NCBI RefSeq assembly: GCF_051903065.1
Contig: NZ_CP178440.1
DNA: 64,000 nt
Direction: 5' to 3' (one strand)
Source: Escherichia coli
GTDB taxonomy: Bacteria > Pseudomonadota > Gammaproteobacteria > Enterobacterales > Enterobacteriaceae
Program-made: the position numbers and the translations under genes
Part shown: piece after piece, positions 2,185 through 25,830 of the stretch
Layout: every line of letters starts with the position of its first letter
Numbering within the stretch: the stretch's first letter is position 1
The notes under the pieces: model-generated
What the model saw: only the letters and a program-made list of their open reading frames with translations
What the model was told of the DNA's origin: nothing
Databases searched by the model: none

Positions 2185-2252
2185 TCTCAAAATCGGTGGA
2201 GCTGCATGACAAAGTCATCGGGCATTATCTGAACATAAAACACTATCAATAA

Positions 2253-2765: not shown

Positions 2766-4062
2766 TTACTTAAGCACTATGAAGGTATCATACACCTTCA
2801 TAGTGTACTTTTTTACTGCGCTTTGGGGCTAAATTGTTTTTGTGAATAGCCAGAATATCGTGGCTACGGCGGCAATGGAAATATATGATCTCTGCTGCCA
2901 GAGACTGGAGATGTAATTGGGGGCAGTTTGGATATCGAAAATTATTGTACTATAAGGGGTCCGCTTGAGGGGGCCGCTTGGAAAACGGAAATTTTCCCAC
3001 GCTAAGAGAATTGAGTTGAACGAGTGGTTACATCTAGGCCAGCTAACTCACTGAACGTAAAGGCTGTACGAAATGTTCCGACCGTCCGATAACCATTTGG
3101 CTTACTTCCGTACATTTCCTTGCGTAGATGTACAGAATTGTACGATTTCGGACACCAAAACTGCTGTTGTCCCGGTGCATGAAGCTACTTTCCGGGTTGG
3201 TGGTACTGACTTTGGTGTTCTTAACGACGACGTTTTCAACTCTGAAAATCGCCTCTCTGCACGGGGATTTTTACCCCCCCATAGAGCCGTCATATAAATT
3301 CAAATTATTAACTTTGATGGTAGAATTATCTTAGGTTTGATAAAATTTTGAGCCGTCGCCGTTTACTTCACAGGATTCAATATAATGGCTAAATATACAG
3401 TTTGTGATTACCAATAAACTATTAGAAATAATGGGAATGGTTGTGCCAATCTCTATCTGGAGGTCTTATTGCAGGGAACATCCACCCCATCGTTACACCA
3501 ATACAGAATTGCCCCCGATACAAGACATCCAGACATTAACCTAATAAAAGCGCACCTTGACGAGGGCTTTCAGCAGGCAAAGTCTGAGGGATTAAAAGTA
3601 GAGATTTCAGATTATAAAGAACGTCTTTACCTGTACATTAGAACACCTGGTAATAACCTAATGCAATATTCTGGTTGCAGAGAAAAATAATACAGTCGCG
3701 CTGGATACTCTGACATTGACGCAGTTATATGATTTTCTGGCGTTGGTCAGTAAACCAGCTGCAGCCAGAACGGTGTAGTCCCTGACACAGGCGCCGGTCA
3801 TTCTGTTAACTCATCCACGTATGGGATGAACAGTTGTTTCAGTTTGAAACCAGGGATGCCAGACGGATTTTTGCTGGCGAGTACGAAATCCGTTACGAAC
3901 TTAATGGCCAGACTATTTATGTATTGCGCCTGTGACACACACGAGAAAACAGGTAGATTGTGTGTGAGGGCAACTTTAACATAGCCTGCAGGTGTTAATT
4001 CAGGAGCATTGTTATCAGACCAAATATTTTTCATTCCATTAAATAGTCTTGTAGGGGATAAA

Positions 4063-4820: not shown

Positions 4821-5782
4821 TAATTACCTATGAGATACATACCGTTAACTAAATCATATTGAGAGTTATTGGTTTTGAAAAAACGTTCATCACGAATCTG
4901 TGTGTGTTTTTTTACTGCATCGCATATTAATTCTGCGCCACCGCCTATAACCATAACATGAGTATAACCAGAAAATTCATTGAGCGTATTTAATACACGT
5001 TGCTCAAGTTTACGAAGTGCGTCATTCATTGCTTCGGTGACTATTGATATTTTGTTCTCATCATTAATTCGTTGCTTCAGATAGTTGTTGTCTTTTCTGT
5101 GAATAATTATATCGTCAGCAAGATAGCTACTTCCTTTTGTTCTCGCAAGAGAAAGTGCATCTTTTACTGCAGATGTGACCAGAGATACACCAAGAGATGA
5201 GTCTCCGTATATTTTACTGATCCCCGATAATTTCCCCATTACCTGAGAAATATCTAATGTGGTGCCCCCGAGATCTATAATTAATAAAGAATCTAACTCA
5301 TCCAGTTCTTGTAGAACTTCATAACCTGCCGGTATAGATTCAGGCATGACTTTTACATCTTTTATTGTGAATGTATCCCCACCATTTAATGTAATTTTTT
5401 TCCGGAAGTTTGCTTTCTTACGCTCAATATTTTCCGTATTGGGTTGGTTATTTCTGTCGTAATACTCTGTCAGAGGAAGTGTGCAAACAATATCCACTTC
5501 GCTTACCGGCAGACCACTGGTCAGTAAGGCGTGGTGCACCGCAACGACATTAACGTCGCTGTATTGCCATGCGATATTGGTTGTGACTACAGCATCCGGG
5601 CTGATTGGATCAAATGAATACTGTTCGCCGTTCAGTGTGTAGTTAAAGACCTTTTTATCACCAAAAGAGACTGCCCACTCGCGTTTGAAGCTGTTCGGGC
5701 TAATGTGCTGTTTAATTGTTCCGTCGTTTTCCTGCCACTGTAGTTTGATGTTTGTTGAACCGTCATCAATGAATACCAACAT
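4820..5782 (-). CDS. parM: Actin-like segregation ATPase ParM (StbA)
   Basis: 320-aa [20 protein letters not shown]... with DLGGTTLD phosphate-binding motif; near-identical to R1 ParM as recalled. Confidence 0.9.
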
Positions 5783-5960
5783 TTATAAAACTCCTTATGG
5801 TGTTTTTTTGGTGTGTGTTTGGGTATGTTTTGGGTTTTAAGTGGGTTTATTTGTCAAGTTTACCCCATTTTAACCATCAATCAATGATTATTTGTCTTGT
5901 TTTGGTGTTTTATTGGGTTGGGTGTGGGTTGTTTTTGGGTTTTGTTTGGCGGGTAACAAA
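5783..5960. promoter_or_regulatory. parC-like centromere/promoter region upstream of parM (GT-rich short direct repeats)
   Basis: Repeated ttttgg / gggtt(t) units on both sides of the presumed promoter, position relative to parM. Confidence 0.5.
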
Positions 5961-6295
5961 AGATGTCGCCGGGCTCCTCTTTTTACTGCGCCGGCTGACG
6001 CGGCGCGGCAGGAACGCTGCCTGTGGTCAGTGTCCCGCGTCCGGCGGGCACGGGACGGGCGCTTTTACCGCTCCCGGCTGGCGTCAGTGACAGTGTACGC
6101 CAGCCAGTCGCCCTTTCTGATGAACGCCCTTCAAGCCGCTTTCGCGGCATAGCCTTGCCGTCAAACAGACGACGGCTGCGGTATTCCACGGTCGGCCTGA
6201 CCCGTTACCGGACGCGGTGAACAGCCCACAGGCAGCGGGGAACGGGCACCACAGGGGTGCCCTCCCGGTGCCCTCTGTAAGAGAAGGAGGCTTTT

Positions 6296-6979
6296 ATGTC
6301 CCGTTTTATCCTGGGTGACTGCGTGCGAGTTATGGCCACGTTTCCGGACAATGCTGTCGATTTCATCCTCACCGACCCGCCGTATCTCGTCGGTTTCCGT
6401 GACCGTTCCGGGCGCACCATTGCCGGTGACGTTAACGATGACTGGCTGCAACCTGCCAGTAATGAGATGTACCGCGTACTCAAAAAAGACGCGCTGATGG
6501 TGAGTTTCTATGGCTGGAACCGTATTGACCGCTTTATGGCAGCCTGGAAACGCGCCGGATTCAGCGTTGTAGGGCATCTCGTCTTCACCAAAAACTACAC
6601 ATCGAAGGCCGCATATGTGGGCTATCGCCACGAATGCGCCTATATCCTGGCAAAAGGCCGTCCACGTCTGCCACAAAACCCGCTGCCGGACGTGCTGGGC
6701 TGGAAATATTCAGGCAACCGCCATCACCCGACGGAAAAGCCTGTTACCAGCCTGCAACCACTGATTGAGAGCTTCACACACCCGAACGCGATTGTGCTGG
6801 ACCCGTTTGCAGGCAGCGGCTCAACCTGCGTCGCCGCCCTTCAGTCCGGACGCCGGTATATCGGTATCGAGCTGCTTGAACAGTATCACCGTGCCGGACA
6901 GCAACGACTGGCCGCCGTGCAACGGGCCATGCAGCAGGGGGCCGCGAATGATAACTGGTTTGAACCGGAGGCTGCGTAA
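6296..6979 (+). CDS. Orphan DNA methyltransferase, beta-class (DPPY motif near N-terminus, FAGSGST AdoMet motif near C-terminus), N6-adenine or N4-cytosine
   Basis: Motif order IV then I read in translation; no adjacent restriction endonuclease gene. Confidence 0.75.
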   Translation: MSRFILGDCVRVMATFPDNAVDFILTDPPYLVGFRDRSGRTIAGDVNDDWLQPASNEMYRVLKKDALMVSFYGWNRIDRFMAAWKRAGFSVVGHLVFTKNYTSKAAYVGYRHECAYILAKGRPRLPQNPLPDVLGWKYSGNRHHPTEKPVTSLQPLIESFTHPNAIVLDPFAGSGSTCVAALQSGRRYIGIELLEQYHRAGQQRLAAVQRAMQQGAANDNWFEPEAA

Positions 6980-7201
6980 ATGAACTATGCCGGACACGAA
7001 AAACTTCGCGCCGACGTGGCGGAGGTGGCCAACACCATGTGTGACCTTCGGGCCAGGCTGAACGATATGGAGCATCGCTGTCGCTTTGATTCCGATGTGC
7101 TTGTTGAACGCCTGACACGCCAGACGCTGTATCGCGCCAATCGCCTGTTTATGGAGGCGTATACCGAAATTCTGGAACTGGATTCCTGCTTCAAAGATTG
7201 A
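6980..7201 (+). CDS. Hypothetical small protein (73 aa), start overlaps methyltransferase stop (taaATG)
   Basis: ORF; translational coupling geometry. Confidence 0.4.
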   Translation: MNYAGHEKLRADVAEVANTMCDLRARLNDMEHRCRFDSDVLVERLTRQTLYRANRLFMEAYTEILELDSCFKD

Positions 7202-7214
7202 GAAGGAGACGAGA

Positions 7215-7649
7215 ATGTACGGAACATGCGAAACGCTCTGCCGGGAGCTGGCAGCGCAGTATCCGGGAGACGCGCCGCTGATGCTGGTTGTCTGGTCCCC
7301 GGAAGAGATCCAGGCCCTCGCTGACGGAATGGATATTTCCCTGTCCGATCATGAAATCAGGACCGTCCTGGCGCGCCTGGAGGACATCCCGGAAGACCAG
7401 CGAATTGAGTCCGGTATTTCTTCCGCCGCGGCGATGGAGATTATCAGCAACGTGAGCGAAAACCGCCAGGTGACCGTTCCGGCTGAACTGCTGGCGTCCC
7501 TGATTCAGACCGCTGAACAGGCATTGTGGAAACGTGAATGGGCCGCCCGGGATCATGGCCTCGCCGTCCCGGAATGCGTCACCCGCCGTCAGGCGGTGGT
7601 TAATCAGGCCCGCACCCTGCTGAAAAACAACACACGCGAAAACGACTGA
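7215..7649 (+). CDS. Hypothetical leading-region protein (144 aa)
   Basis: ORF with RBS gaaggagacgagaATG; conserved-hypothetical of IncF leading regions as far as I recall. Confidence 0.5.
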   Translation: MYGTCETLCRELAAQYPGDAPLMLVVWSPEEIQALADGMDISLSDHEIRTVLARLEDIPEDQRIESGISSAAAMEIISNVSENRQVTVPAELLASLIQTAEQALWKREWAARDHGLAVPECVTRRQAVVNQARTLLKNNTREND

Positions 7650-7693
7650 TGTTATCGCCGCCTGCGGGCGGCGATTCAGGGAGACCATGAATC

Positions 7694-8464
7694 ATGAACG
7701 AAACGCTGAATGCACTGATTTGTCGCCACGCCCGTAACCTGCTGCTGGCGCAGGGCTGGCCGGAAGAGACGGATGTTGACCAGCGAAATCCGAACCATCC
7801 GGGCTGGATCAGCATTTACGTGCGGCTGGATGCGCCCCGGCTGGCGACATTACTCGTTAACCGCCACGATGGCGTGCTGCCGCCGCACCTGGCCTCCGCC
7901 ATTCAGAAACTGACCGGAACCGGGGCGGAGCTGGTACTGTCCGGCAGTCAGTGGCAGTCGCTGCCGGTACTTCCGGCAGACGGAACGCAGGTGTCTTTCC
8001 CGTATGCCGGTGAGTGGCTGGCAGAGGACGAAATCAGGGCAGTTCTTGATGCGGTACGCGATGCAGTACGCTGTGTCAGTTACCAGGTGGCAGAAGATAC
8101 GCGGCGTATCCGGGCGGCGCTGACCACAACCGGTCAGACGTTACTGACCCGCCAGACGCGCCGCTTTCGCCTGGTTGTGAAGGAAAGCGATCACCCCTGC
8201 TGGCTCGATGAGGACGACGAAAACCTGCCCGTGGTGCTCGATGCCATCCTGAACCGGGGCGCACGTTTTTCGTCGGTGGAAATGTATCTGGTCAGTGAGT
8301 GTATTGAGCATATCCTGTCCAGTGGGCTGGCCTGCGATGTGCTGCGTATACCGGATGAACCGCCCCGCCGCTGGTTTGACCGTGGTGTTCTGCGGGAGGT
8401 GGTCCGGGAAGCCCGGACCGAAATCCGCAGCATGGCGGATGCCCTGGCAAAAATCCGGAAATGA
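7694..8464 (+). CDS. Hypothetical leading-region protein (256 aa)
   Basis: ORF; no recognised motif. Confidence 0.5.
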
Positions 8465-8879
8465 TGACACTGGCGGGGTAAATCCCCGCCTTTTTCCTGC
8501 CGGTCCCCGGACAGAGCACAAAGGAAGTCGCCGCCGGCTCCGCTTTACCCGGCCATGCAGAGCATGGCCTTGTGGTTTTTCAGTTATGTGGCCTCAGCGT
8601 CGTGTGCGGGCTGTGCCGTGCCTCCATCTTAGCCGGGCTGGCGTTGATGCAAGGGTACGCTTCGCCGCTGCGGTCACCCGGTCCCTCCTTCCCGTCTGCC
8701 GTGATTTTCCGGTCGTTCGCCCGCTCAGGTTTCGCGGCCTCACCCTGCAACTCCCGCCAGCCGTGTGCGTCAGGCTGCGGCTTCCCTTGCGCCCCTGCAT
8801 CCCCGCCTTATCGCCCGGCTTTTATGGAGGCACGGCACCGCCCGGTGTCGCGGAATATGTGAACAACGGAGGAAATCCC

Positions 8880-9305
8880 ATGCAGTATGCGAAACCTGTC
8901 ACTCTGAACGTTGAAGAGTGCGACCGTCTCTCCTTTCTGCCTTACCTGTTTGGCAACGATTTTCTGTATGCCGAGGCGTATGTGTACGCGCTGGCGCAAA
9001 AAATGATGCCGGAATATCAGGGCGGCTTCTGGCACTTCATCCGCCTGCCGGACGGTGGCGGTTACATGATGCCGGATGGCGACCGTTTCCACATGGTGAA
9101 CGGTGCAAACTGGTTTGACCGTACCGTGAGTGCTGATGCCGCAGGCATCATCCTGACCTCCCTTGTGATTAACCGCCAGTTGTGGCTGTACCACGACAGC
9201 GGGGATGCAGGACTGACCCAGCTTTACCGGATGCGCGATGCGCAGTTGTGGCGTCACATCGAATTTCACCCCGAATGCAACGCGATTTACGCGGCTCTGG
9301 ACTGA
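8880..9305 (+). CDS. Antirestriction protein, KlcA/ArdB family
   Basis: 141-aa protein from ATG 8880 (RBS aacggagg); DRLSFLP and [15 protein letters not shown] segments resemble KlcA; the 336-aa ORF-track version is an N-terminal over-extension through GC-rich non-coding DNA. Confidence 0.7.
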
Positions 9306-9351
9306 TTAACGGACGGGGCGGCAATGCCGCCCCTGTAAAGGAGACGAGAAC

Positions 9352-9774
9352 ATGTACTGTACTGTTAAAGAAATCATCCGCGATGTACTGGATACAGACG
9401 TGCCGGACAGTGAATGTGTTTTTGCCGTGGTGCTGACCCGTGGGGATGTGCGTCACATAGCCCAGGACTGGAACCTGTCAGACGATGAGCTGGAAACCGT
9501 CATGCAGCGGCTGGACGATGCCTTTGAGCATGGTGCGGATGTCAGCGTTGTTCACGACGTTGTTCGTGAACTGATGGAAGAAAAGCGCGCCAGCCGTCAT
9601 GTGACAGTCCCGGCGGTGATGCTGGAAAAAGTGATGGCGCTGGCAGGCAGTGAAATGAAGCGCCTGTATGCCGTCGGGAGTGAGAACGGGGGCGACGGTG
9701 ACGCATTCGTCAGGGAGGAACGCGAAGCAATGGACGTTGTGTTACAGGCGCTGGACGGGGAGACGATGTCATGA
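9352..9774 (+). CDS. Hypothetical leading-region protein (140 aa), acidic C-terminus
   Basis: ORF with RBS aaaggagacgagaacATG. Confidence 0.5.
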   Translation: MYCTVKEIIRDVLDTDVPDSECVFAVVLTRGDVRHIAQDWNLSDDELETVMQRLDDAFEHGADVSVVHDVVRELMEEKRASRHVTVPAVMLEKVMALAGSEMKRLYAVGSENGGDGDAFVREEREAMDVVLQALDGETMS

Positions 9775-9962
9775 ATATCAGCACAGAAACCCGCGAAATT
9801 CTGCGTAATTACAGGGCCGTGATTAATGCGCGGCGTCGTGAAATGGGGCAGAAACCGCTCACCACCGCGCAGATTGTTGATGAAATCTGCGATTTTGTGG
9901 CGAATCAGCAGGCGGTTTTCCTGGGCGGTCACTACATCTTACAGGGCAGCAGAAACAGGTGA
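9771..9962 (+). CDS. Hypothetical small protein (63 aa), start overlaps upstream stop
   Basis: ORF; ATGA overlap with preceding gene. Confidence 0.4.
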   Translation: MNISTETREILRNYRAVINARRREMGQKPLTTAQIVDEICDFVANQQAVFLGGHYILQGSRNR

Positions 9963-10155
9963 TACAGGGGCAGGCGGTGGAGGCCGCCTGTCAGCCCGCG
10001 CGAAAACCCCTGGCAGGCTGACGCCTGCCGGAAGGGAAGCGGGCCACGCTGGCGCGTCGCCCGTTACCCTTCCCGTCTGTGATGTGTCTGACTCAGGAGT
10101 GTTTCTTTCTTATGTTGCGGAACTGTTCCTGATGTTGTTGTTGTTCCTTTATCTG

Positions 10156-10763
10156 CTGCTCTGATTCTGACTACTGCAGTGTTGTTCTGTCTGCCGGGCG
10201 CACCTTCGGCTCCCGGCTGCCTGGCGGCATCCGGTCGTCAGGCCCGACTCCGACAGGCAGCTGCTGGCGCACCTGCCAGTCTCCGCCGAACCCGCTGGCG
10301 CGGCTTCGGGCTGCCGCTACGGTCCGATGCGTGAAAACCCCGGGCTTGCAGCGACCGTTCCGGTCGCGCCGCCTCTGTCGCGCCGTGGCCTGCGCTCCTG
10401 GCATCCCGGCAAAAGGCCGCCGGGATGTAAGGGGCAACGCCGTTTCGCGCACGCGCTCTCCGTCGTTGCGGCGGGTCCCTGCTCATTGCCTGCCGGGTGC
10501 CACACACCCGTATGAGTCCCTGTCGCCGGGGGCTGATACAGCCACAACCTGCCGCACTGACTGTCCAGGGTAAATGAACAGCCCACAAAATTTTTTACCC
10601 AAAACCCGGTAAAAAATTTTGCGTTCTGCCCAGGACAGGTGCGTCAGGCCGTGGCAGTGATGCCCCTTGCGGCGAAGGTTCTCAAACGGGTGAAGTTCAT
10701 ACCACAGGGAATACAGCAGCAGGTTCCCGCGAAACGTCAAAACCGCGGCTCCCGAAACTCAAC
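10156..10763 (+). promoter_or_regulatory. Frpo/ssi-like structured repeat, copy A (candidate single-strand promoter / priming element)
   Basis: About 608 bp sharing long identical blocks with copies B and C; contains a 14-bp perfect inverted repeat at 10585-10598 / 10608-10621; ORFs called inside on both strands are artefacts. Confidence 0.65.
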
Positions 10764-11003
10764 GGGTGATGTTCTTTAAAAATCAGGATTTATTTCAGGC
10801 TCCGGCAATACGCATTTATTTGTTCTGTCAGTCATCCGGCTGGCAGGTAATGAGAACGCAGGAACAGAAGGAGGAAAACACCGTAGAACGTCAGACGCAG
10901 ATATGAAAAAAGCAGGTCAGGGACCTGCTTAATCCACGCCGTAAGAATTGCGCAACCAATTTTGACGGCATTGTTAACCAATTTGTCATAAGGAGTTTCA
11001 TTT

Positions 11004-11234
11004 ATGACAGTAAGTATTGTTTCACCTTCCGCAGCGGCTGTAAAGCCCCGCCGTCATCCCCGTTTCAGACGCGAAGACATCCCCGCGCCGGAAATTGACC
11101 CCGTGCTGAAAGCCTTCGGGCGACACATTGCCCGGAGTTTTCACCGGGGGCGTGGTGTACACATCCCCGCCATGAAAAACACGGCCTTCGGGCAGGTGCT
11201 CCGCACACTCGAACTGAAACGCGCTTTTAACTGA
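11004..11234 (+). CDS. Hypothetical small basic protein (76 aa) first gene after repeat copy A
   Basis: ORF with RBS aaggag 9 nt upstream of ATG. Confidence 0.4.
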   Translation: MTVSIVSPSAAAVKPRRHPRFRREDIPAPEIDPVLKAFGRHIARSFHRGRGVHIPAMKNTAFGQVLRTLELKRAFN

Positions 11235-11285
11235 TGAGGTGAGCCGCCCCGCGAGGGGCGGCAACAGACGGAAGGAGAACATTTT

Positions 11286-12647
11286 ATGACATTAGCAGCC
11301 ATCACCATGACCGCCCCGGAAGCCGCCAGCCCTGTGCAGATGTACCGCGCGACCTACTCACCGGATGACAACAAACTGCGCCTGTATGCCGCGTCACGCC
11401 TCGACCCGGAGACGTATAAAAAAGTGCATGATGCTGGTTTTCGCTGGGCACCCAAACAGGCGCTGTTTGTCGCGCCGGCCTGGACACCGGGCCGGGAAGA
11501 CGTGCTCCTCTCACTTGCCGGAGAGATTGAGGATGAAGACAGCACGCTCGCTGAACGTCAGGAAGCACGGGCGGAGCGGTTTACCGGATACAGCGGAAAG
11601 CGGGCCAGTGAATCCGCACAGGCACTTGATGAAGTGGAAAGACTGGCCGCGATGATCCCGCCCGGTCAGCCCATTCTTGTGGGGCATCACAGCGAACGCC
11701 GCGCCCGTCGTGATGCGCAGCGTATTGAAAACGGCATGAAACGTGCCGTGATGCTCTTTGAACGTGCGGAATACTGGGAAGAACGCGCGCGGTCGGCACT
11801 GCTTCACGCGAAGTATAAAGAACGTCCGGACGTTCGCTGGCGTCGTATCAAAAAAATCGAAGCTGATTTGCGCAAGGCTGAAAAGACCATTGCACAGTCG
11901 CAGAAATATCTGACGATGTGGCGGGCTGAATCGCTGGATCTGAATATGGCAAAACTCATCAGCAGTCATGACCATATCAGCGCCTGTTTCCCGCTGGATA
12001 CGTATCCGCGCCCGGCAGAAAAAAGCCAGTATGAAGGAAGTCGATCGTTATGGTCGGCCCTGGATGATGACATCATCACCACGGAGCAGGCCCGCGAAAT
12101 TGCGATCCGCTGTCATGAACGGCAGATCCAGCGTCAGCAACGCTGGGTTAACCACTATCAGAACCGCCTGATCTATGAGCGTGCCATGCTGGACGAAAGC
12201 GGCGGCGTGGTTACCCGGACACAGGATTTTGAGCCGGGCGGACAGGTTTTCAGCCGGGGCGAGTGGCTGACCATCATCCGTGTGAACAAAAGCAACGGGG
12301 CGGTGAGTTCAGTCACAACGCCAAATTACAGTTTTCTCGGGTACAGCGGCACGATGAAAGTGACGCCCGATCGCATCACGGACTACAAAGCACCATCGGC
12401 AGAAGAGGCTGCCGTCGCCAGTCAGGCCGCGAAGCGTCCGCCGGTAGTCAACTATCCGGGGGAAGGTTTCCGGGAAATGACAAAGGCACAGTGGGCCGCC
12501 CTGCCCCGGGACTGTAAGGCCGTGCGCAGTGTGGCAGAAGCAGAAGACCACGGGGCATACCGCTACCGCCGCACAATGGACAATAATTTCCGCCTGGTGA
12601 ATGTGTATATCACCGACATGAAAATCACGGAAATTCCACAGAAATAA
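11286..12647 (+). CDS. Hypothetical large leading-region protein (453 aa)
   Basis: ORF with RBS ggaaggagaacattttATG; conserved in IncF leading regions as far as I recall; function unknown. Confidence 0.6.
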   Translation: MTLAAITMTAPEAASPVQMYRATYSPDDNKLRLYAASRLDPETYKKVHDAGFRWAPKQALFVAPAWTPGREDVLLSLAGEIEDEDSTLAERQEARAERFTGYSGKRASESAQALDEVERLAAMIPPGQPILVGHHSERRARRDAQRIENGMKRAVMLFERAEYWEERARSALLHAKYKERPDVRWRRIKKIEADLRKAEKTIAQSQKYLTMWRAESLDLNMAKLISSHDHISACFPLDTYPRPAEKSQYEGSRSLWSALDDDIITTEQAREIAIRCHERQIQRQQRWVNHYQNRLIYERAMLDESGGVVTRTQDFEPGGQVFSRGEWLTIIRVNKSNGAVSSVTTPNYSFLGYSGTMKVTPDRITDYKAPSAEEAAVASQAAKRPPVVNYPGEGFREMTKAQWAALPRDCKAVRSVAEAEDHGAYRYRRTMDNNFRLVNVYITDMKITEIPQK

Positions 12648-12694
12648 GGTATATCCCCCCGGGAAAATCCCCGGGGGATGACGGAGATAATGAC

Positions 12695-13258
12695 ATGCAC
12701 AGTCAGTTAAGAGAACGTATCCGGCTGATGCGCGCAAGGCTGGATAACGCCGCGCCGGTTGCTGAAATCCGGGCTGAATCTCAGCTTTTTGTGACTCCTG
12801 CCCCGGTCTGTGATCGCCTGGTGATGCTGGCGGAGATCAGCAACCGTGATCACATTCTGGAACCCTCTGCCGGCACCGGGGCCATACTGCGGGCGATTCG
12901 GGATACCGCGCCGGGGGCCATGTGTGATGCGGTGGAAATCAACAGCGGGCTGGTCCGGTATCTGCGGGAAAATTTTAACGGTGTCAGGGTTCAGTGTGGC
13001 GACTTCATGGAATGGCAGCCGGCGCAGTATTACAGCCGGGTTATCATGAATCCGCCGTTCAGCCACGGGCAGGATATCCGGCATATCCTGCGGGCCTTTT
13101 CCCTGTTGCGTCCGGGTGGCGTGCTGGTCGCCGTCTGTCTCAACGGACCACGCCAGCAGGAGAAGCTGTTACCGTTTTCTGACGTCCGCGAGGAGCTGCC
13201 GCGCGGCACGTTTGCTTATACCGATGTCCCGACGATGATTATTCGTCTGCGTGCCTGA
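12695..13258 (+). CDS. Small putative AdoMet-dependent methyltransferase (187 aa), gamma-like motif order (EPSAGTG then NPPF)
   Basis: Motifs read in translation; too short to include an obvious target-recognition domain. Confidence 0.6.
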   Translation: MHSQLRERIRLMRARLDNAAPVAEIRAESQLFVTPAPVCDRLVMLAEISNRDHILEPSAGTGAILRAIRDTAPGAMCDAVEINSGLVRYLRENFNGVRVQCGDFMEWQPAQYYSRVIMNPPFSHGQDIRHILRAFSLLRPGGVLVAVCLNGPRQQEKLLPFSDVREELPRGTFAYTDVPTMIIRLRA

Positions 13259-13464
13259 AGACGCCGGGCAGGCGGGAGGATAAATGCCCGTCTGCCCGCG
13301 CCGGGAAAAGACCGCGCGCCGGTGGCGCTGAAAGGGGCCGCGCTCACGCGCCGCCCCTTTCATTACGCGGACGTTCTGATGGGGGCTTCTGTTTCTTCAT
13401 GCCTGTCATTTGTCTGTTACTGATGTTGTTGTTCCTGCTACTGCTACTGTTCTTCTTTTTCCTG

Positions 13465-14074
13465 CTGCTCTGATTCTGACTACTGCAGTGTTGTCCCGTC
13501 TGCCGGGCGCACCTTCGGCTCCCGGCTGCCTGGCGGCATCCGGTCGTCAGGCCCGACTCCGACAGGCAGCTGCTGGCGCACCTGCCAGTCTCCGCCGAAC
13601 CCGCTGGCGCGGTTTCGGGCTGTCGCTACGGTCCGATGCGTGAAAACCCCGGGCTTGCAGCGACCGTTCCGGTCGCGCCGCCTCTGTCGCGCCGTGGCCT
13701 GCGCTCCTGGCATCCCGGCAAAAGGCCGCCGGGATGTAAGGCGCAACGCCGTTTCGCAAACCGCGCTTCACGTCGTTGCGGCGGGTCCCTGCCCGTTGTT
13801 GTGTCCGGTGCCATTCACCTGTTTAAGCCCCTGTCGCCGGGGGCATAGACAGCCACAACCGTCTCCGCCAGTCCAGGGGTGAAATGCACATCCCGCAAAA
13901 CTTTTTGCCCGGAAGCAGGCAAAAACTTTTGCGGTCTGCCCCCGGACAGTCGTTTCCGGCCGTGGCAGTGATGCCCCTTGCGGCGAAGGTTCTCAAACAG
14001 GTGATGGTGAATACCGGAGGGAACAAAGAGCAGGTCCCCGCAAAACGTCAAAACCGCGGCTCCCGAAACTCAAC
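13465..14074 (+). promoter_or_regulatory. Frpo/ssi-like structured repeat, copy B, immediately upstream of ssb
   Basis: 610 bp, nearly identical to copy C (a few mismatches), more diverged from copy A; inverted repeat cgcaaaactttttgcc / ggcaaaaacttttgcg. Confidence 0.65.
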
Positions 14075-14115
14075 AGATGATGGGGGCTGAAAACATCAAC
14101 AGAAGGAGACACATC

Positions 14116-14951
<836 letters not shown>

Positions 14952-15016
14952 GAGAGGTGCCGGACGGGGACACGTCCGGCAGACAATCATTATTACCGTT
15001 TTGGGAGGTACTAACT

Positions 15017-15591
15017 ATGTCAGTTACAGAGTCTAAGGCAAAAACGGAGCGTAAATCCAGCCGTAAACCTGCAAAAACGCAGGAAACAGTCCTGTCTGCC
15101 CTGCTGGCGGAGACGGCTGAAGTGAGCGTGCCGCTGGCCTCGCTGATTAAGTCACCGCTGAATGTGCGCACGGTGCCGTATTCTGCGGAGTCCGTCAGCG
15201 AACTGGCAGAGTCCATTAAAGGTGTCGGCCTGCTGCAGAATCTGGTTGTCCATGCCCTGCCTGGTGACCGTTACGGTGTCGCCGCAGGTGGTCGCAGGCT
15301 GGCGGCACTCAATATGCTGGCAGAGCGTGGCATCCTTCCGGCTGACTGGCCTGTCCGCGTGAAGGTCATCCCGCAGGAACTGGCGACGGCGGCATCGATG
15401 ACCGAGAACGGTCATCGTCGGGATATGCACCCTGCCGAACAGATTTCCGGATTCCGTGCAATGGCGCAGGAAGGCAAAACACCTGCACAAATCGGTGATT
15501 TGCTGGGCTATTCACCCCGCCATGTCCAGCGAATGCTGAAACTGGCAGACCTTGCGCCTGTCATCCTCGATGCGCTGGCAGAAGACCGCAT
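15017..15591 (+). pseudogene. ParB-like leading-region gene, N-terminal fragment interrupted by IS26 copy 2
   Basis: ORF runs without a stop into the IS26 left inverted repeat at 15592; remainder resumes in frame at 20742. Confidence 0.6.
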
Positions 15592-16411
15592 GGCACTGTT
15601 GCAAATAGTCGGTGGTGATAAACTTATCATCCCCTTTTGCTGATGGAGCTGCACATGAACCCATTCAAAGGCCGGCATTTTCAGCGTGACATCATTCTGT
15701 GGGCCGTACGCTGGTACTGCAAATACGGCATCAGTTACCGTGAGCTGCAGGAGATGCTGGCTGAACGCGGAGTGAATGTCGATCACTCCACGATTTACCG
15801 CTGGGTTCAGCGTTATGCGCCTGAAATGGAAAAACGGCTGCGCTGGTACTGGCGTAACCCTTCCGATCTTTGCCCGTGGCACATGGATGAAACCTACGTG
15901 AAGGTCAATGGCCGCTGGGCGTATCTGTACCGGGCCGTCGACAGCCGGGGCCGCACTGTCGATTTTTATCTCTCCTCCCGTCGTAACAGCAAAGCTGCAT
16001 ACCGGTTTCTGGGTAAAATCCTCAACAACGTGAAGAAGTGGCAGATCCCGCGATTCATCAACACGGATAAAGCGCCCGCCTATGGTCGCGCGCTTGCTCT
16101 GCTCAAACGCGAAGGCCGGTGCCCGTCTGACGTTGAACACCGACAGATTAAGTACCGGAACAACGTGATTGAATGCGATCATGGCAAACTGAAACGGATA
16201 ATCAACGCCACGCTGGGATTTAAATCCATGAAGACGGCTTACGCCACCATCAAAGGTATTGAGGTGATGCGTGCACTACGCAAAGGCCAGGCCTCAGCAT
16301 TTTATTATGGTGATCCCCTGGGCGAAATGCGCCTGGTAAGCAGAGTTTTTGAAATGTAAGGCCTTTGAATAAGACAAAAGGCTGCCTCATCGCTAACTTT
16401 GCAACAGTGCC
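15592..16411 (+). mobile_element. IS26 copy 2 (820 bp)
   Basis: Exact 14-bp terminal inverted repeats; flanking 8-mers gaccgcat and ttgtgaac. Confidence 0.95.
15655..16359 (+). CDS. tnpA: IS26 transposase
   Basis: Identical translation to the other copies. Confidence 0.95.
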   Translation: MNPFKGRHFQRDIILWAVRWYCKYGISYRELQEMLAERGVNVDHSTIYRWVQRYAPEMEKRLRWYWRNPSDLCPWHMDETYVKVNGRWAYLYRAVDSRGRTVDFYLSSRRNSKAAYRFLGKILNNVKKWQIPRFINTDKAPAYGRALALLKREGRCPSDVEHRQIKYRNNVIECDHGKLKRIINATLGFKSMKTAYATIKGIEVMRALRKGQASAFYYGDPLGEMRLVSRVFEM

Positions 16412-16907
16412 TTGTGAACCTTATTGATGATCGTACCGATGATATTTTGTATGGAAGGCCATGGTACAAAAAATGGACGATGGGGAGAATGATCTCATTT
16501 AACACATCTTCGCCTTACGCCAATGCTAATGGAAGATTAAGAAAGTGGGCAAAAAATAATAATATCAGTTTAAAGTAAGCATCAGAATGAAATTATATGG
16601 ACGAAAAATTTCTCTATTAACTGCACCATGGCTGGTAAAATCTCTTACCCTTGATGAAAATACAGGTTCCGTTACTGTTACGGTCGGAATCGCTGAAAAT
16701 ACCTATAACCATCGTAAATGGTTCCACTTTGATACCTGCCTGTTCATTACCCAGTGCGCCGTAAAGCCCCGTCCTTCAGGGCGTGGAGGATGTCAAATTA
16801 GTAGAAGCCGATGCTGGGAGCAATGTTCCACTACGGGAAGCTGAATATGGCGTTCTGAGCCTTCCTACAATTATCGGGGAAGCCCCATCTGCGTACTCCG
16901 GATTTTT

Positions 16908-17035
16908 GTTTATATGATCATGGGATTATATGATTATATCATTTTGTAACTATTTGATTATGTAATTTTATGATTGCATAATTTTATGAATATGAGATTA
17001 TTTGAATACTTGGCAGAGGTACTATTTGAACAAAG
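16908..17035. promoter_or_regulatory. Array of about 7 degenerate AT-rich direct repeats (TT(A/T)TGA(T/A)T) upstream of parA; candidate centromere/operator
   Basis: ttatatgatca, ttatatgattat, tttgattatgt, ttttatgattg, ttttatgaata, ttatttgaata, tatttgaaca read at roughly 11-12 bp spacing. Confidence 0.5.
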
Positions 17036-17046
17036 GGGAGAGGTGA

Positions 17047-17670
17047 ATGCCTAACGTGATAGCATTTTTAAATGGTAAGGGGGGGGTGTCTAAGACAACC
17101 TCGGCAGTTAATATTGCTACTGCTCTTGCTCGTAAGGGTTACAAAGTTGTTGTTGTGGATACCGATCCCCAGGGAAGTGTTAGTAACTGGTATGATGACA
17201 GTAAGTGTGTTTTTGATGTAGCGGAAGCTACGGCAGAAAAAGAAATTTACCGTTTGCGGAAGGCGCTTCCTTTGCACGATTTTATCATTATTGATGGTGC
17301 TGCTGCGATTTCGGCGATATCGGCGGCTGCTGTTATGGTTTCTGATCTTGTTATTATTCCAGTTACTCCTTCGCCGCTTGATTTTGCTGCGTGTGGCGCG
17401 ATATTGGCAGTGATAGAAGCTCGTCAGGATTTACGCCCGGTGATTGCTCGCTTTTTGATTACTAAAAAAGTACAGCAAACGCATATGTTATCTTTGCTGA
17501 AAGAATCTATTGCAGAAACAAGCATACCAGCATTAAAAACAGGAACGTCGTACAGGCAGTCATATATAAGATCTATGCTGGATGGTGGTACTATATTTGA
17601 TACAAAAGATAGTGCTGCTAAAGGTGAAATATCAGTTATTACAGAAGAAATACTTGGACTATTAAAATGA
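17047..17670 (+). CDS. ParA-family partition ATPase (small, type Ib-like)
   Basis: Deviant Walker [11 protein letters not shown] at N-terminus, 207 aa. Confidence 0.85.
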
Positions 17671-17873
17671 GTAAAATGAAACTTGGGAATCATAAGGCAA
17701 CAAACACTGCTCTGGATGCACTGAAGAAACCTGCGGGAGCAACCAGAAAGTTACAAATGAATATTCCAGAAGAGTTACATCTTGCATTTAAATTAGCTTG
17801 TGTGGAAGATGGCATTGATATGACACAGGTAAATATAGAACTCATTCAAAACTGGTTAAAGAGTCGTAACTGA
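17667..17873 (+). CDS. Small partition partner protein (ParG-like, probable ribbon-helix-helix centromere binder)
   Basis: 68-aa ORF overlapping parA stop; basic N-terminal tail then short structured domain. Confidence 0.5.
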
Positions 17874-18182
17874 TAGTGTTTCAGCCAGTCGTAATCTGCG
17901 ACGCAAACAAAAAGCGCTGTCCCGCAAGCTCAATGCGGCACTCAACATCCGGCAAAAAGGAATACAGGAACTACAGGCGACGGGACTCGTCGTCACTGCC
18001 CATGGAGACCAGCGTAAATCCGTCGTACAGAAGAGGATAAAATGGGAGAGCAGTTATCGATTCCCTATCCGGGCAGCCCGTTTACGGGCCGTAAGTAACG
18101 AAGTTGGATGCAAATGTCAGATCGTGTGCGCCTGTTAGGGCGCGGCTGGTAAGAGAGCCTTATAGGCGCATTTGAAAAACCT

Positions 18183-18206
18183 CCGGCTATGCCGGAGGAT
18201 ATTTAT
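18183..18206. terminator. Bidirectional rho-independent terminator hairpin (cctccggc ... gccggagg) flanked by A/T runs
   Basis: Perfect stem with T-run on the minus strand about 80 nt downstream of the adhesin stop. Confidence 0.5.
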
Positions 18207-18284
18207 TTATCGAGTTCGGTGACCGCCTGGACGGTCACTTCTGAGACAAGGCATTTACACAGAATCTTAAACAGGCTCGCTAAT

Positions 18285-19775
18285 TTACCACCCAATGGCA
18301 AAACCAGCTCCTAAGTTTGTATCACCACCATTGTTCCATGATGTGTTGACTCGTATGTTAGCATTCTGGCTCACTTTATATTGAACTCCGGCTGCGATTG
18401 CTTGAGCATCACGATAATGCCCCACGCCCATACCAAATGAAAAGCGCTCATTATTAACATAAGGAATTGATGAAATAGCGGTAACTCCGGCAATACCCGC
18501 ATTAGCACGCTTTTCGACTCTATCTATTTTTTTATTCATTTGTGAGAATCTTTGCTCATTTTTCTGCTGTAAATCATTTAATGTTTTATTGAAGTTTTTA
18601 CCTAATGTATCAACGCTAGATGCAGTATATTTGTTTGCCATTTCTAGAGTGTTTAAATCACCTTGTTCACGGAGTCTTTTCTCTTCATTGATTGCACTTG
18701 TTCTGGCTTTTTTTTCTTCATTTATTCTTGCAACTACTGATTTGCTGGGGTCTTTTTCTATATTTTTAATTTCATCTTCACTCATGCCTATAGCTTTAGT
18801 GACAACATCTAATTGGGACATATTCACAGCATCTGTAGGATTTACGCCCCCGGCAAGATTCGTGATTCTTCTGTTTATCATGGGCTCTGTCGTTGTTGCT
18901 TCCCTTCCTAAAGATACAACACCATTCTTACTATCTGTGTTCTCTACAGCGGTATATTTAGATACAGTATCATCATATTGATTATGCGTTTTCGATCTTG
19001 CCCCAAGAGCAATACTGCCTTTTGAATTAGACTCAGATAAATATCCAATGGAAACAGAATCAGTTTCCTGAGAGGCTGAATATGATCCTAATGCAATACT
19101 ATTTTTACCAATGGAATGAGACTCTAATCCTATGGCAGAACTGCCAGAGCCAATTGATAATGATTGACTACCCAATGCTGTACCAAATTCACCAACCACC
19201 GTCGAAAAGGAACCTACTGCCGTTCCTTCAATATTGTGGGAACTTGATTTATATCCCATTACAGATGACGCATATTGATTCCCATATTTCTCCTTAGCAT
19301 GAGGATCAACAGATGAGTCAACAGAAATATGTCCATCAGCGGATACTGTTATTTTTTTACCACTCACATCTAAGGATGAATTATTTTCAGGCAATTTAGT
19401 TACTGAAGCTTTGTTACCGATTAAAGTTGAATAGTTTCCTTCTGAATCAATTTTCGATCTGGATCCAACTATAGTCGAAAAAGTCCCTGCTTCTGTTGCA
19501 GAATCGTATCCTATTACTACTGATGCTCCTGCTCCTCCTTTTTCTGGTATATTCAAAGACTTAGAATTTGGACCTATTACTACTGAGAAATTTTGTTCTG
19601 ATCTTGTAGCATCACCAATTCCCTTACCAATAGCGATACTGCCAATACCTGAAGATTCTGTATTATCCGCACCAATAGCTATAGATGAGTAGCCTTTAGG
19701 ATTAGCAGCAAAAGAACAAAGGCTAACACCAGATAATGTTAATAGTATAGATGATAAAATTAATTTATTATTCAT
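18285..19775 (-). CDS. Trimeric autotransporter adhesin (YadA-like head repeats, coiled-coil stalk, C-terminal beta-barrel anchor)
   Basis: Signal peptide MNNKLILSSILLTLSGVSLCSFA, repetitive SIAIG/SxGxxS head motifs, heptad-rich stalk, C-terminal anchor ending GAGFAIGW. Confidence 0.8.
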   Translation of the reverse strand: MNNKLILSSILLTLSGVSLCSFAANPKGYSSIAIGADNTESSGIGSIAIGKGIGDATRSEQNFSVVIGPNSKSLNIPEKGGAGASVVIGYDSATEAGTFSTIVGSRSKIDSEGNYSTLIGNKASVTKLPENNSSLDVSGKKITVSADGHISVDSSVDPHAKEKYGNQYASSVMGYKSSSHNIEGTAVGSFSTVVGEFGTALGSQSLSIGSGSSAIGLESHSIGKNSIALGSYSASQETDSVSIGYLSESNSKGSIALGARSKTHNQYDDTVSKYTAVENTDSKNGVVSLGREATTTEPMINRRITNLAGGVNPTDAVNMSQLDVVTKAIGMSEDEIKNIEKDPSKSVVARINEEKKARTSAINEEKRLREQGDLNTLEMANKYTASSVDTLGKNFNKTLNDLQQKNEQRFSQMNKKIDRVEKRANAGIAGVTAISSIPYVNNERFSFGMGVGHYRDAQAIAAGVQYKVSQNANIRVNTSWNNGGDTNLGAGFAIGW

Positions 19776-19921
19776 AGCAACATATCCCACCAAAGTAGAT
19801 AGATTATCGTTATTCCTCGATAAATAAATTGCAATGTAAGATACATTAATCTTAACAATGTGTTAACATAAGAGGCTGTTAACACATTTAGTTTATAACA
19901 TAAAACATCATAAATATTAAG

Positions 19922-20741
19922 GGCACTGTTGCAAATAGTCGGTGGTGATAAACTTATCATCCCCTTTTGCTGATGGAGCTGCACATGAACCCATTCAAAG
20001 GCCGGCATTTTCAGCGTGACATCATTCTGTGGGCCGTACGCTGGTACTGCAAATACGGCATCAGTTACCGTGAGCTGCAGGAGATGCTGGCTGAACGCGG
20101 AGTGAATGTCGATCACTCCACGATTTACCGCTGGGTTCAGCGTTATGCGCCTGAAATGGAAAAACGGCTGCGCTGGTACTGGCGTAACCCTTCCGATCTT
20201 TGCCCGTGGCACATGGATGAAACCTACGTGAAGGTCAATGGCCGCTGGGCGTATCTGTACCGGGCCGTCGACAGCCGGGGCCGCACTGTCGATTTTTATC
20301 TCTCCTCCCGTCGTAACAGCAAAGCTGCATACCGGTTTCTGGGTAAAATCCTCAACAACGTGAAGAAGTGGCAGATCCCGCGATTCATCAACACGGATAA
20401 AGCGCCCGCCTATGGTCGCGCGCTTGCTCTGCTCAAACGCGAAGGCCGGTGCCCGTCTGACGTTGAACACCGACAGATTAAGTACCGGAACAACGTGATT
20501 GAATGCGATCATGGCAAACTGAAACGGATAATCAACGCCACGCTGGGATTTAAATCCATGAAGACGGCTTACGCCACCATCAAAGGTATTGAGGTGATGC
20601 GTGCACTACGCAAAGGCCAGGCCTCAGCATTTTATTATGGTGATCCCCTGGGCGAAATGCGCCTGGTAAGCAGAGTTTTTGAAATGTAAGGCCTTTGAAT
20701 AAGACAAAAGGCTGCCTCATCGCTAACTTTGCAACAGTGCC
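19922..20741 (+). mobile_element. IS26 copy 3 (820 bp), same orientation as copy 2
   Basis: Exact terminal inverted repeats; flanking 8-mers atattaag and accggaag. Confidence 0.95.
19985..20689 (+). CDS. tnpA: IS26 transposase
   Basis: Identical translation to the other copies. Confidence 0.95.
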   Translation: MNPFKGRHFQRDIILWAVRWYCKYGISYRELQEMLAERGVNVDHSTIYRWVQRYAPEMEKRLRWYWRNPSDLCPWHMDETYVKVNGRWAYLYRAVDSRGRTVDFYLSSRRNSKAAYRFLGKILNNVKKWQIPRFINTDKAPAYGRALALLKREGRCPSDVEHRQIKYRNNVIECDHGKLKRIINATLGFKSMKTAYATIKGIEVMRALRKGQASAFYYGDPLGEMRLVSRVFEM

Positions 20742-22029
20742 ACCGGAAGTACAGACCATTCGTCGTCTGGTGACCGAAAGTGAAGTGGCGGTGGCGGGGA
20801 ACAGTAAATTCCGCTTCGTGGGGGCTGATGCCTTCTCGCCAGACGAACTGCGCACCGATTTGTTCAGCGATGACGGGGACGGTTATGTCGACCGCGTGGC
20901 GCTCGATGCTGCCCTGCTGGAAAAACTCCAGGCTGTCGCAGAGTTCCTTCGGGAAGCCGAGGGCTGGGGATGGTGCGCCGGACGCATGGAGCCTGTCGGT
21001 GAATGCCGTGAAGATGCCCGGGCATACCGCAACCTGCCGGAGCCGGAAGCGGTGCTGACGGAGGCGGAAGAAGAACACCTGAACGAACTGATGGCACGTT
21101 ACGACGCGCTGGAAAACCAGTGTGAGGAATCTGACCTGCTGGCAGCAGAAATGAAGCTGATTGACTGCATGGCGAAGGTCAGGGCGTGGACGCCGGAGAT
21201 GCGTGCCGGAAGTGGCGTGGTGGTGTCCTGGCGTTACGGTAATGTGTGTATCCAGCGTGGTGTGCAGTTGCGCAGTGAGGATGATGTGGCTGACGACGCT
21301 GACCGCACGGAACAGGGGCTGGAGAGCGCGTCAGTGGAGGAAATCAGTCTGCCGTTGCTGACTAAACTGACCTCAGAGCGCACGCTGGCAGTCCAGGCAG
21401 CACTGATGCAGCAACCGGACAAATCCCTGGCACTGCTGGCATGGACGCTCTGCCTGAATGTGTTTGACAGCAAAGCGCACTGTAGTCCCGCCAGAATTCG
21501 CCTGGCATGTGAGCATTATGCGCTGACCAGCGATGCACCGTCGGGGAAGGAAGGTGCCGCATTCATGGCGCTGATGGCAGAACACTCTCGTTTTGCTGCC
21601 CTGCTGCCGGAAGGATGGGAACGGGATATGACGACGTTCCTGTCACTCAGCCAGGAGGTGCTGTTATCCCTGCTCAGCTTCTGTACCGCGTGCAGTCTTA
21701 ACGGTGTCCAGACCCGAGAGTGTGGTCACACGTCACGCAGTCCGCTTGACTCGCTGGAAACCGCCATCGGCTTTCACATGCGCGACTGGTGGCAGCCGAC
21801 AAAAGCAAACTTCTTCGGACACCTGAAAAAGCCGCAGATTATCGCAGCTCTGAATGAGGCAGGACTGTCCGGTGCCGCACGGGACGCGGAGAAGATGAAG
21901 AAAGGCGATGCGGCTGAACATGCAGAGTTCCATATGAAAGACAACCGCTGGGTGCCTGGCTGGATGTGTGCACCACGTCCACAGACGGATACCACTGAAC
22001 GCACCGATAACCTGGCTGATGCCGCCTGA
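20742..22029 (+). pseudogene. ParB-like leading-region gene, C-terminal fragment (continues the frame interrupted at 15591)
   Basis: Open frame begins exactly at the IS26 boundary; joining 15591 to 20742 gives codon ata and an uninterrupted frame. Confidence 0.6.
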
Positions 22030-22083
22030 TGAACAACCACACCGCCCCGCCGGAGACGGGGCGGCAGCAAGGGAGATACCGTG

Positions 22084-23234: not shown

Positions 23235-23455
23235 TGCGGCAATAATCACACGGATTACCCGTGAACTGGTTGAACGACCAGATTATTTTCAGGGAAAGTG
23301 AGTGTGGTCAGCGTGCAGGGATATGAGCTATGATGTGCCCGGCGCTTGAGGCTTTCTGCCTCATGACGTGAAGGTGGTTTGTTGCCGTGTTGTGTGGCAG
23401 AAAGAAGATAGCCCCGTAGTAAGTTAATTTTCATTAACCACCACGAGGCATCCCT

Positions 23456-25820: not shown

Positions 25821-25830
25821 TAATATAAGT

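Follow-up and report, generated by a model that had tools for sequence, protein, structure and literature searches.

The ydcA gene

The window analysed here, a stretch of 64,000 nucleotides of Escherichia coli DNA (contig NZ_CP178440.1), contains the gene ydcA at positions 12695..13258 of the plus strand. It encodes a protein of 187 amino acids (aa) that consists of the catalytic module of a gamma-class amino-methyltransferase. After a gap of 48 bp it follows ydbA (11286..12647, plus strand), the gene of a 453-aa DUF3560 protein. Sequence comparisons indicate that the two genes are the products of the fission of one DUF3560-methyltransferase gene: YdbA is the predicted N-terminal 'half' of the split enzyme and a candidate targeting or substrate-binding partner.

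The open reading frame (ORF) of ydcA has 187 codons, starts with ATG and ends with TGA, and is preceded by a GGAG Shine-Dalgarno sequence (12683-12686, 8 nt 5' of the ATG). Its surroundings are G+C-rich and the ORF list contains many spurious overlapping ORFs. Judged by its relatives, ydcA is a genuine conserved gene and not a chance ORF, because near-identical proteins are encoded on plasmids, alignment columns are invariant and there are HMMER matches. At least 5,000 plasmid records encode a protein with 96-100% identity, and among the best 5,000 the match spans 80% of the query or more in 4,989. The carriers of ydbA-ydcA include at least 5,000 sequenced F-like plasmids, from E. coli, Klebsiella, Salmonella and Shigella. 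An exhaustive whole-database HMMER search returned 10,116 relatives of YdcA at E<=1e-3, and within Enterobacterales the length is constant at about 187 aa. An alignment of 24 homologues, with identities down to 51%, has 42 invariant columns, including those of QLFxTP, EPxAGTG, E81, D103-F104, NPPF and a C-terminal F-x-Y-T-x-V-x-T. RefSeq labels the protein 'class I SAM-dependent methyltransferase'.

YdcA resembles TaqI- and DarB-like adenine methyltransferases

Three motifs define the catalytic module. Motif X (QLFVTP, aa 30-35, positions 12782..12799, plus strand) is followed by a helix (aa 36-46) and has Q30, L31, F32 and P35 invariant in the 24 homologues; it aligns with ETP of M.TaqI and with YYTP of P1 DarB. 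Motif I, which binds S-adenosylmethionine (AdoMet), is EPSAGTG (aa 56-62, 12860..12880, plus strand), with E56, P57, A59, G60, T61 and G62 invariant. The catalytic motif IV is NPPF (aa 119-122, 13049..13060, plus strand): N119, P121 and F122 are invariant and P120 is conserved to at least 90%. NPPF aligns with NPPY of M.TaqI and is also kept in 44 fused proteins described below. The motif order is X-I-II-III-IV-VIII, the last conserved stretch being LPRGTFxYTxV (aa 168-178).

YdcA thus has several hallmarks of the gamma class, namely the linear motif order, a (D/N)PP(Y/F) tetrapeptide and a class I Rossmann fold that is nearest to DNA adenine methyltransferases. It has no target-recognition domain of its own and no recognised specificity subunit; YdbA is a candidate to act in trans and has no similarity to known recognition domains.

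Pfam returned only weak, generic matches (MTS, 29 bits). Among solved structures, the catalytic domain of M.TaqI is closest in sequence (E 1e-6, YdcA aa 33-135). The AlphaFold2 (AF2) model of YdcA, with a predicted local distance difference test score (pLDDT) of 87, is a bare seven-stranded Rossmann methyltransferase core with nothing after the last strand; in front of it are a loosely packed helix (aa 3-17, pLDDT 39-65) and a disordered stretch (aa 18-30). Foldseek places M.TaqI first (E 1e-11, TMq 0.69, 25% identity), followed by TrmN, type I HsdM and PacII; Dim1/Erm are also among the top matches, and RNA and small-molecule methyltransferases lie within one log of M.TaqI.

A sequence-only reading of the window had described a 187-aa methyltransferase at this position, much shorter than typical DNA N6-adenine methyltransferases, with the AdoMet motif EPSAGTG followed by the NPPF of amino-methyltransferases and with no obvious target-recognition domain. 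All of this holds: ORF, motifs and conservation are there, the short form is the one conserved in Enterobacterales, and the model stops at the last core strand. The structure prediction that it had proposed as a check has a DNA adenine methyltransferase, M.TaqI, as best fold match, with the RNA and small-molecule enzymes close behind, and shows no appended domain.

Searches of phage and defence profiles gave much stronger matches. PHROGs profiles match YdcA at 1e-33 to 1e-31, in each case to a methyltransferase module within a profile of 1,259-3,431 positions. PADLOC assigns mad2 at 1e-20, in addition to many Type II methyltransferase profiles; a literature search on the MADS defence system returned only papers on plant MADS-box proteins, and the PADLOC profile is the sole source of this likeness. 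One homologue that was inspected is located inside a 3,066-aa protein of a Vibrio phage. In this phage (252E42.2, MW824390; L014 1-5489, record 5670-14870) the YdcA-like module has 34% identity and lies in the middle of the protein, which is annotated as 'hypothetical protein'; about 120 Vibrio phage genomes share it and it is apparently a polyvalent early or injected protein. Methyltransferase modules of polyvalent proteins have been described as EcoKI/TaqI-like N6-adenine methylases with a TP motif plus helix and NPP(Y/F), the archetype being P1 DarB (Iyer et al. 2017, PMC5512222).

By predicted fold and motifs, YdcA is therefore of the gamma-class, TaqI/EcoKI/DarB-like N6-adenine methyltransferase type. 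Its catalytic module groups by sequence with the polyvalent-protein (DarB-like) methylases and not with M.EcoGIX, an assignment that is new here. The window does encode a homologue of M.EcoGIX, as a separate gene (6296-6979, plus strand; 227 aa, beta-class, DPPY; Pfam N6_N4_Mtase, E 6e-39). YdcA has no N6_N4_Mtase match and lacks the beta-class features, so that an identity of YdcA with the beta-class, DPPY-bearing M.EcoGIX is ruled out.

ydbA and ydcA correspond to one fused gene in other bacteria

To define the architectures in which the methyltransferase occurs, the 135 best 50%-identity cluster representatives from the HMMER search with YdcA were cross-searched with YdbA. Full collinear fusions account for 44 of the 135: YdbA residues ~20-452 are N-terminal and the methyltransferase is C-terminal, in chains of 485-1,453 aa (most ~575-780). 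A further 24 combine a partial YdbA with the methyltransferase, and 28 are fragments. Pfam finds DUF3560 and MTS within the same chains of fused representatives. In the fused 679-aa protein of the Alicycliphilus plasmid pALIDE201 (WP_013723335), aa 22-458 correspond to YdbA 17-451 (46% identity, E 9e-130) and aa 496-679 to YdcA 5-187 (40% identity, E 7e-33). pALIDE201 is a MOBF/MPF_F conjugative plasmid and its fusion gene has ssb, DUF932, kleA and radC as neighbours. A word-indexed protein search with YdbA yielded close Enterobacterales relatives only and no distant architectures.

When plasmids were searched with the fused query, all 5,000 best records had a coverage of at least 80%. The query matches a single ORF in Betaproteobacteria and Pseudomonas plasmids, with Acidovorax, Comamonas, Cupriavidus, Pandoraea, Paraburkholderia and Denitratisoma among the hosts, and two adjacent ORFs in Escherichia, Klebsiella, Raoultella, Serratia, Salmonella and an Erwiniaceae bacterium. 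The two same-strand genes thus match one chain collinearly and without overlap, with order and adjacency kept. One matches the N-terminal and the other the C-terminal part of the fused chains, and the Enterobacterales pair is therefore the product of the fission of one DUF3560-methyltransferase gene. No statement of such a split was found in the literature searched.

The linker of the fusions is 27-160 aa long, Pro/Ala-rich and disordered. It is followed by a conserved amphipathic helix, F-x-A-M-R-x-x-L-K-x-G-V-x-V-V, which is the N-terminal helix of YdcA. The position of the break in the linker and the retention of this helix on YdcA indicate that the Enterobacterales cut fell within the flexible linker. 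The 'minimal orphan' of the sequence-only reading is consequently half right: YdcA is a minimal catalytic module, but it is not free-standing, being the C-terminal module of a split DUF3560-methyltransferase. In L009 the DUF3560-methyltransferase was split independently, into genes that overlap by 4 nt, and in another lineage the DUF3560 gene is located three small genes upstream of the methyltransferase gene.

E. coli, Serratia and Klebsiella share the junction: the ydbA stop codon, then a G+C-rich stem-loop, then the Shine-Dalgarno sequence and ATG of ydcA. In the window the stem-loop (12649..12682, plus strand; RNA fold -21.6 kcal/mol) lies between the ydbA stop codon and the ydcA ribosome-binding site. 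Serratia (-22.6 kcal/mol) and Klebsiella (-21.9 kcal/mol) have equivalents of other sequence at the same place (L007 6328-6348, L013 4814-4836). No U-tract comes after the ydbA/ydcA stem-loop, which may play a part in the stability or processing of the mRNA or in translational uncoupling.

A restoration of the fused protein by programmed recoding finds no support: a slippery heptamer is not apparent, and every ydcA comes with a Shine-Dalgarno sequence and an ATG of its own. In E. coli a -1 shift would connect the two ORFs, the frame of ydcA being open over the 108 nt that precede its start codon. In Serratia, ydbA and ydcA share a frame with stop codons between them, and the -1 event needed in E. 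coli is therefore not conserved. Two apparent 582-aa 'fusions' with 99% identity (P0261/P0262) were rejected as deletions or assembly artefacts: they are deletion chimeras without motif X whose parts meet at an RLV microhomology, and each is a singleton from a short contig.

Since the pair came from the fission of a longer ORF and since classical F manages without the cassette, ydcA could be regarded as a functionless, decaying remnant of a broken fused gene. This explanation is close to refuted. At 51-88% identity across genera the 42 invariant columns and all catalytic motifs are retained, the length stays at about 187 aa, the gene's own Shine-Dalgarno sequence and ATG are conserved together with the junction hairpin in three genera, and ydcA is intact in 4,989 of 5,000 plasmid records.

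The DUF3560 protein YdbA

Pfam DUF3560 matches YdbA at aa 89-206 (E 5e-37); separate Pfam searches with the N-terminal, middle and C-terminal pieces gave no match. In the AF2 model (pLDDT 90.6) a small alpha/beta domain (20-83) is followed by three very long helices (88-212), which are the Pfam DUF3560 core, then by a helical region (219-304) and a beta-rich C-terminal part. The core (aa 89-212) has an isoelectric point of 10.2, and the conserved positions of the protein include 25 Lys/Arg and 18 aromatic residues; this basic character fits nucleic-acid binding. Old database labels of YdbA as 'hydrolase' or 'HD superfamily hydrolase' found no support in fold, profile or Pfam searches. Samuel et al. 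list YdbA as the leading-region-enriched family 28, 'Uncharacterized; DUF3560; Methyltransferase domain protein', and in the literature searched DUF3560 is mentioned, never functionally.

A possible contact site is found on YdcA: M1, L5, R8, I9 and M12 of its N-terminal helix are invariant, yet the helix stands off the core in the AF2 model. The conservation of this unpacked helix suggests a docking element.

The cassette lies between Frpo repeats in the leading region

Positions 5956-15591 and 20742-33755 of the window are collinear with an IncF plasmid, namely with its tra genes, oriT and leading region. Genes and repeats are arranged as follows: beta-class DNA methylase, DUF1380, klcA-type antirestriction gene, Frpo copy 1, a 76-aa ORF, ydbA, ydcA, Frpo copy 2, ssb, DUF905 and a ParB-like gene; past a 5.1-kb insertion follow psiB, hok, a third Frpo copy (23927-24573) and oriT/traM. 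ydcA has the orientation of ssb and psiB and lies upstream of oriT/traM. This collinearity confirms the leading-region position that had been supposed from the letters of the window.

Frpo elements work as promoters solely while the incoming DNA is single-stranded, and in F they have been shown to drive zygotic expression (PMC9849209). Copy 1 (10123..10771, plus strand) is located directly upstream of the cassette and is a direct repeat of copy 2 (13414..14094, plus strand), which closes the cassette and precedes ssb (14113-14655, Pfam SSB). The two are 97% identical over 300 nt and 76-93% beyond; the Frpo2 region of F matches copy 1 with 94% identity. For all three copies, each about 650 nt long, the identity to the two Frpo regions of F or to the NZ_CP027448 repeat copies is 84-98%. 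Folded as single-stranded DNA (ssDNA), the minus strand of copy 1, which is the T-strand, forms a long hairpin (-179 kcal/mol, z = -7.06 against shuffled controls). No sigma-70-like promoter for double-stranded DNA was found on the plus strand upstream of the cassette.

RefSeq annotates 207-nt ORFs inside the Frpo repeats as 'single-stranded DNA-binding protein' (13884-14090, plus strand; L001 16891-17097 and 22314-22520); these coincide in part with the promoter hairpin and seem to be annotation errors.

Classical F has two Frpo copies and lacks the equivalent of window positions ~10089-13643, that is, the ~3.5 kb between copies 1 and 2: its klcA/DUF1380 genes run straight to Frpo2 and ssb. 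This is the pattern expected from recombination between Frpo direct repeats, so by sequence the repeats could delete the cassette.

The first gene of the cassette is a small ORF of 76 aa (11004..11234, plus strand). It is annotated as hypothetical protein in relatives, with the same ORF annotated in NZ_CP027448, and has a weak, sub-threshold HU-like Pfam match (E 7e-4, 20 bits against a cut-off of 26). It probably belongs to the YdaB/YdfB family; YdaB/YdfB/YgdA is the most abundant leading-region family of Samuel et al. (Supplementary Table, family 1). A similar small ORF is found after another Frpo copy in related plasmids. At the other end, 75 nt past the ydcA stop codon, a G+C-rich inverted repeat (13333-13358, plus strand; AGGGGCCGCGC / GCGCCGCCCCT) is followed by TTTCATT; it may be the terminator that closes the cassette before Frpo copy 2, although a simple terminator scan made no call.

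The 5.1-kb insertion (15592-20741) has the gene of an IS26-type transposase (IS6 family, DDE_Tnp_IS240; 15637-16359) at its start. It breaks the ParB-like gene yfjB/herB, of whose product the N-terminal 228 aa, with ParB_N and a helix-turn-helix, are left; the plasmid is therefore without an intact HerB. YdcA itself is not YfjB/HerB: HerB is the product of this ParB-like gene downstream of ssb, which is here truncated by the IS26-type insertion.

A chromosomal CRISPR spacer of Klebsiella pneumoniae matches Frpo copy 1 at 10453-10484 (minus strand) with 2 mismatches. This spacer is a published one, entered in Table 3 of PMC6965323 under 'intergenic region, 2-4 hits in same plasmid'; of the other spacers in that study, three are directed at the DUF3560 gene and one at the SAM-methyltransferase gene, so that this very module is a target of host CRISPR arrays.

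A possible role in plasmid establishment

From the reality of the gene, its fold and motifs, the fusion/fission relation, the conserved adjacency and the Frpo context, all of them observed, we propose that YdbA and YdcA make up a two-part methyltransferase of the leading region, with YdcA as the catalytic subunit, and that this enzyme carries out an early, low-specificity adenine methylation of entering plasmid DNA as a means of anti-restriction. We consider the odds of this proposal to be about even. Lying behind the Frpo-type promoter, the cassette would probably be expressed in the recipient during the first few minutes that follow transfer, and would then be shut off. YdcA is predicted to bind AdoMet via EPSAGTG, E81 and D103-F104, and its NPPF would serve to methylate an exocyclic amino nitrogen, which is most likely to be adenine N6 in the incoming plasmid DNA. 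Because YdcA has no recognition domain of its own, it would have little sequence specificity; the basic, arginine-rich YdbA, on which it may depend physically or functionally, would bring it to the substrate. The outcome would be a plasmid that is shielded from restriction in the new host, alongside the M.EcoGIX-type methylase and KlcA nearby. Leading regions are known to be enriched in orphan methyltransferases.

A number of observations, given here and in the next two paragraphs, weigh against this proposal. Experiments on YdcA, YdbA or any fused homologue were absent from the literature searched, and F, the model plasmid of recent leading-region studies, does not have the ydaB-ydbA-ydcA cassette. 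A single-molecule real-time (SMRT) methylome of IncF-bearing E. coli had no unassigned plasmid-linked motif and only the M.EcoGIX-type enzyme was counted, the presence of ydcA on that plasmid not being established. For YdbA, Foldseek found only generic helical bundles among solved structures (best E 0.2), phmmer and profile searches against PDB sequences gave no match, and neither a DNA-binding fold nor an HsdS-type recognition domain was recognised in fold and profile searches. YdbA may nonetheless be a new targeting module without solved counterpart that replaces the target-recognition domain, in one of two versions: it would load YdcA on the T-strand or nascent duplex for sequence-independent methylation, or direct it to a non-DNA target of the host (ribosome, tRNA or a defence protein). 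We regard this as a tentative and doubtful suggestion.

The architectures of the 135 representatives bear on whether YdbA is needed at all. The methyltransferase stands alone (~173-213 aa) in 11 of them and follows unrelated short N-terminal extensions in 28, one with a DnaJ domain; as the module occurs alone or with other N-terminal parts, YdbA is perhaps not required. The long flexible linker would also fit two independent, co-delivered modules, which makes the fusion weaker evidence for a joint function than usual. YdcA could then be an autonomous, promiscuous, minimal adenine methyltransferase of DNA (or ssDNA), with YdbA in a separate establishment function and linked to it by co-expression or co-delivery. 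That the model of YdcA is a complete Rossmann core with every catalytic motif agrees with this, as does the argument that polyvalent proteins combine independent functions that are merely co-delivered (PMC5512222); M.EcoGIX, with its 227-aa homologue in this window, is a precedent for a small non-specific leading-region methylase. We nevertheless think such autonomy rather unlikely: the order DUF3560-then-methyltransferase is fixed in at least 44 diverse fusions, the adjacency of ydbA and ydcA outlives fission in all 5,000 best plasmid records as well as in the independent split, and the conserved but unpacked N-terminal helix hints at docking.

The substrate is the other point of doubt. Searched against PDB sequences, the family profile of YdcA matches M.TaqI, KsgA/Erm, MJ0882 and HemK alike (E 1e-7 to 1e-5), and the best NCBIfam matches of YdcA are Erm and KsgA, both sub-threshold. 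As DNA, rRNA and protein methylases score alike, homology leaves room for RNA or protein substrates, and YdbA-YdcA might methylate a non-DNA molecule of the host (adenine or guanine of rRNA/tRNA, or a protein glutamine) and thereby transiently reprogramme or disarm the recipient. TrmN and Dim1/Erm among the top folds, the lack of a DNA-recognition domain in YdcA and of a recognisable DNA-binding fold in YdbA, and the DNA methylase that the plasmid already has at 6296-6979 are all in line with this; moreover, another leading-region protein, YfjB/HerB, was shown to reprogramme the host rather than to protect DNA. Membership in the known families is, however, not borne out. Scores are far below the curated cut-offs: 35.1 bits against 212 for Erm, 30.4 against 171 for KsgA and 25.4 against 199 for PrmC. 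YdcA also has no C-terminal helical RNA-binding domain as in KsgA/Erm, and a single N-terminal helix in place of the helical substrate-binding domain of PrmC/HemK. Its strongest matches, by many orders of magnitude, are the polyvalent-protein modules and mad2, which the literature regards as DNA adenine methylases (PMC5512222), and its motif X has the F-x-T-P form of the DNA gamma class. A non-DNA target is thus unlikely.

What the split enzyme adds

Orphan leading-region methyltransferases were already known, and so was the putative annotation of ydcA. What sequence comparison adds is that the 'miniature' enzyme is half of a split DUF3560-methyltransferase, with a partner that has no structural precedent, and that its cassette is bracketed by Frpo repeats and missing from F. 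As classical F is without the cassette, recent work on leading-region expression does not cover ydbA-ydcA. The pair is nevertheless very widespread on F-like plasmids, the main vehicles of antibiotic resistance, and is located within the segment that is first to enter a new host. Regarding the genes as two halves changes what should be expressed, namely both genes or a natural fusion and not ydcA alone, and DUF3560 gains its first functional link through the fusion to a methyltransferase.

The plasmid encodes two different, unrelated predicted early methylases (6296-6979 and ydcA). Should the pair guard entering DNA from restriction, there would be two methylation shields of different mechanism, this one and M.EcoGIX, and the pair might be a target for curbing plasmid spread. 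If its substrate is a molecule of the host instead, then one of the most widespread gene pairs of Enterobacterales resistance plasmids would represent a new type of establishment factor: an enzyme that manipulates the host and not one that 'vaccinates' DNA by methylation.

Comparison with known systems

M.EcoGIX and M.BceJIII are single-strand-specific leading-region methyltransferases, the activity of M.EcoGIX being demonstrated (SAY, one strand; Fomenkov et al. 2020, PMC7736820). YdcA is likewise a small leading-region methyltransferase, oriented for expression from the transferred strand and with a presumed role in restriction protection at entry. In contrast to M.EcoGIX, which is a single beta-class polypeptide with DPPY before motif I, YdcA is a predicted gamma-class enzyme with a DUF3560 partner.

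With DarB of P1, a genetically defined antirestriction factor (PMC5512222), YdcA shares the gamma-class layout of TP motif, helix, LEPSAGTG, NxPF/NPPF and LPxGTF (24% identity, E 6e-7) and, probably, deployment at the earliest stage of invasion. DarB is injected from the virion, whereas YdcA would be synthesised in the recipient. The flanks also differ: DarB has LPD36 and an SF2/SNF2 helicase, whereas YdcA is a separate 187-aa chain with DUF3560 as partner, and Pfam found no helicase or LPD domain, and thus no DarB-type dyad, in YdbA, YdcA or the fusions.

M.TaqI (PDB 2ADM/1G38) resembles YdcA in motif order, in NPPY/NPPF and in sequence and fold of the catalytic domain. It differs by its C-terminal target-recognition domain of about 180 aa, which reads TCGA, while YdcA ends with the catalytic domain. 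In type I HsdM+HsdS and in PacII M1M2S (PDB 7VRU) a gamma-class core works with a separate target-binding protein, a role for which YdbA is a candidate; unlike in these systems, YdbA has no HsdS-type likeness and no restriction partner is present.

Closest to the pair are the fused proteins of pALIDE201 and of the Acidovorax sp. JS42 plasmid (CP000540). They are likewise uncharacterised and, unlike YdbA and YdcA, consist of one polypeptide with a Pro-rich linker of 27-160 aa, but they are homologous to YdbA plus YdcA over the whole length and are encoded in the same kind of establishment cluster.

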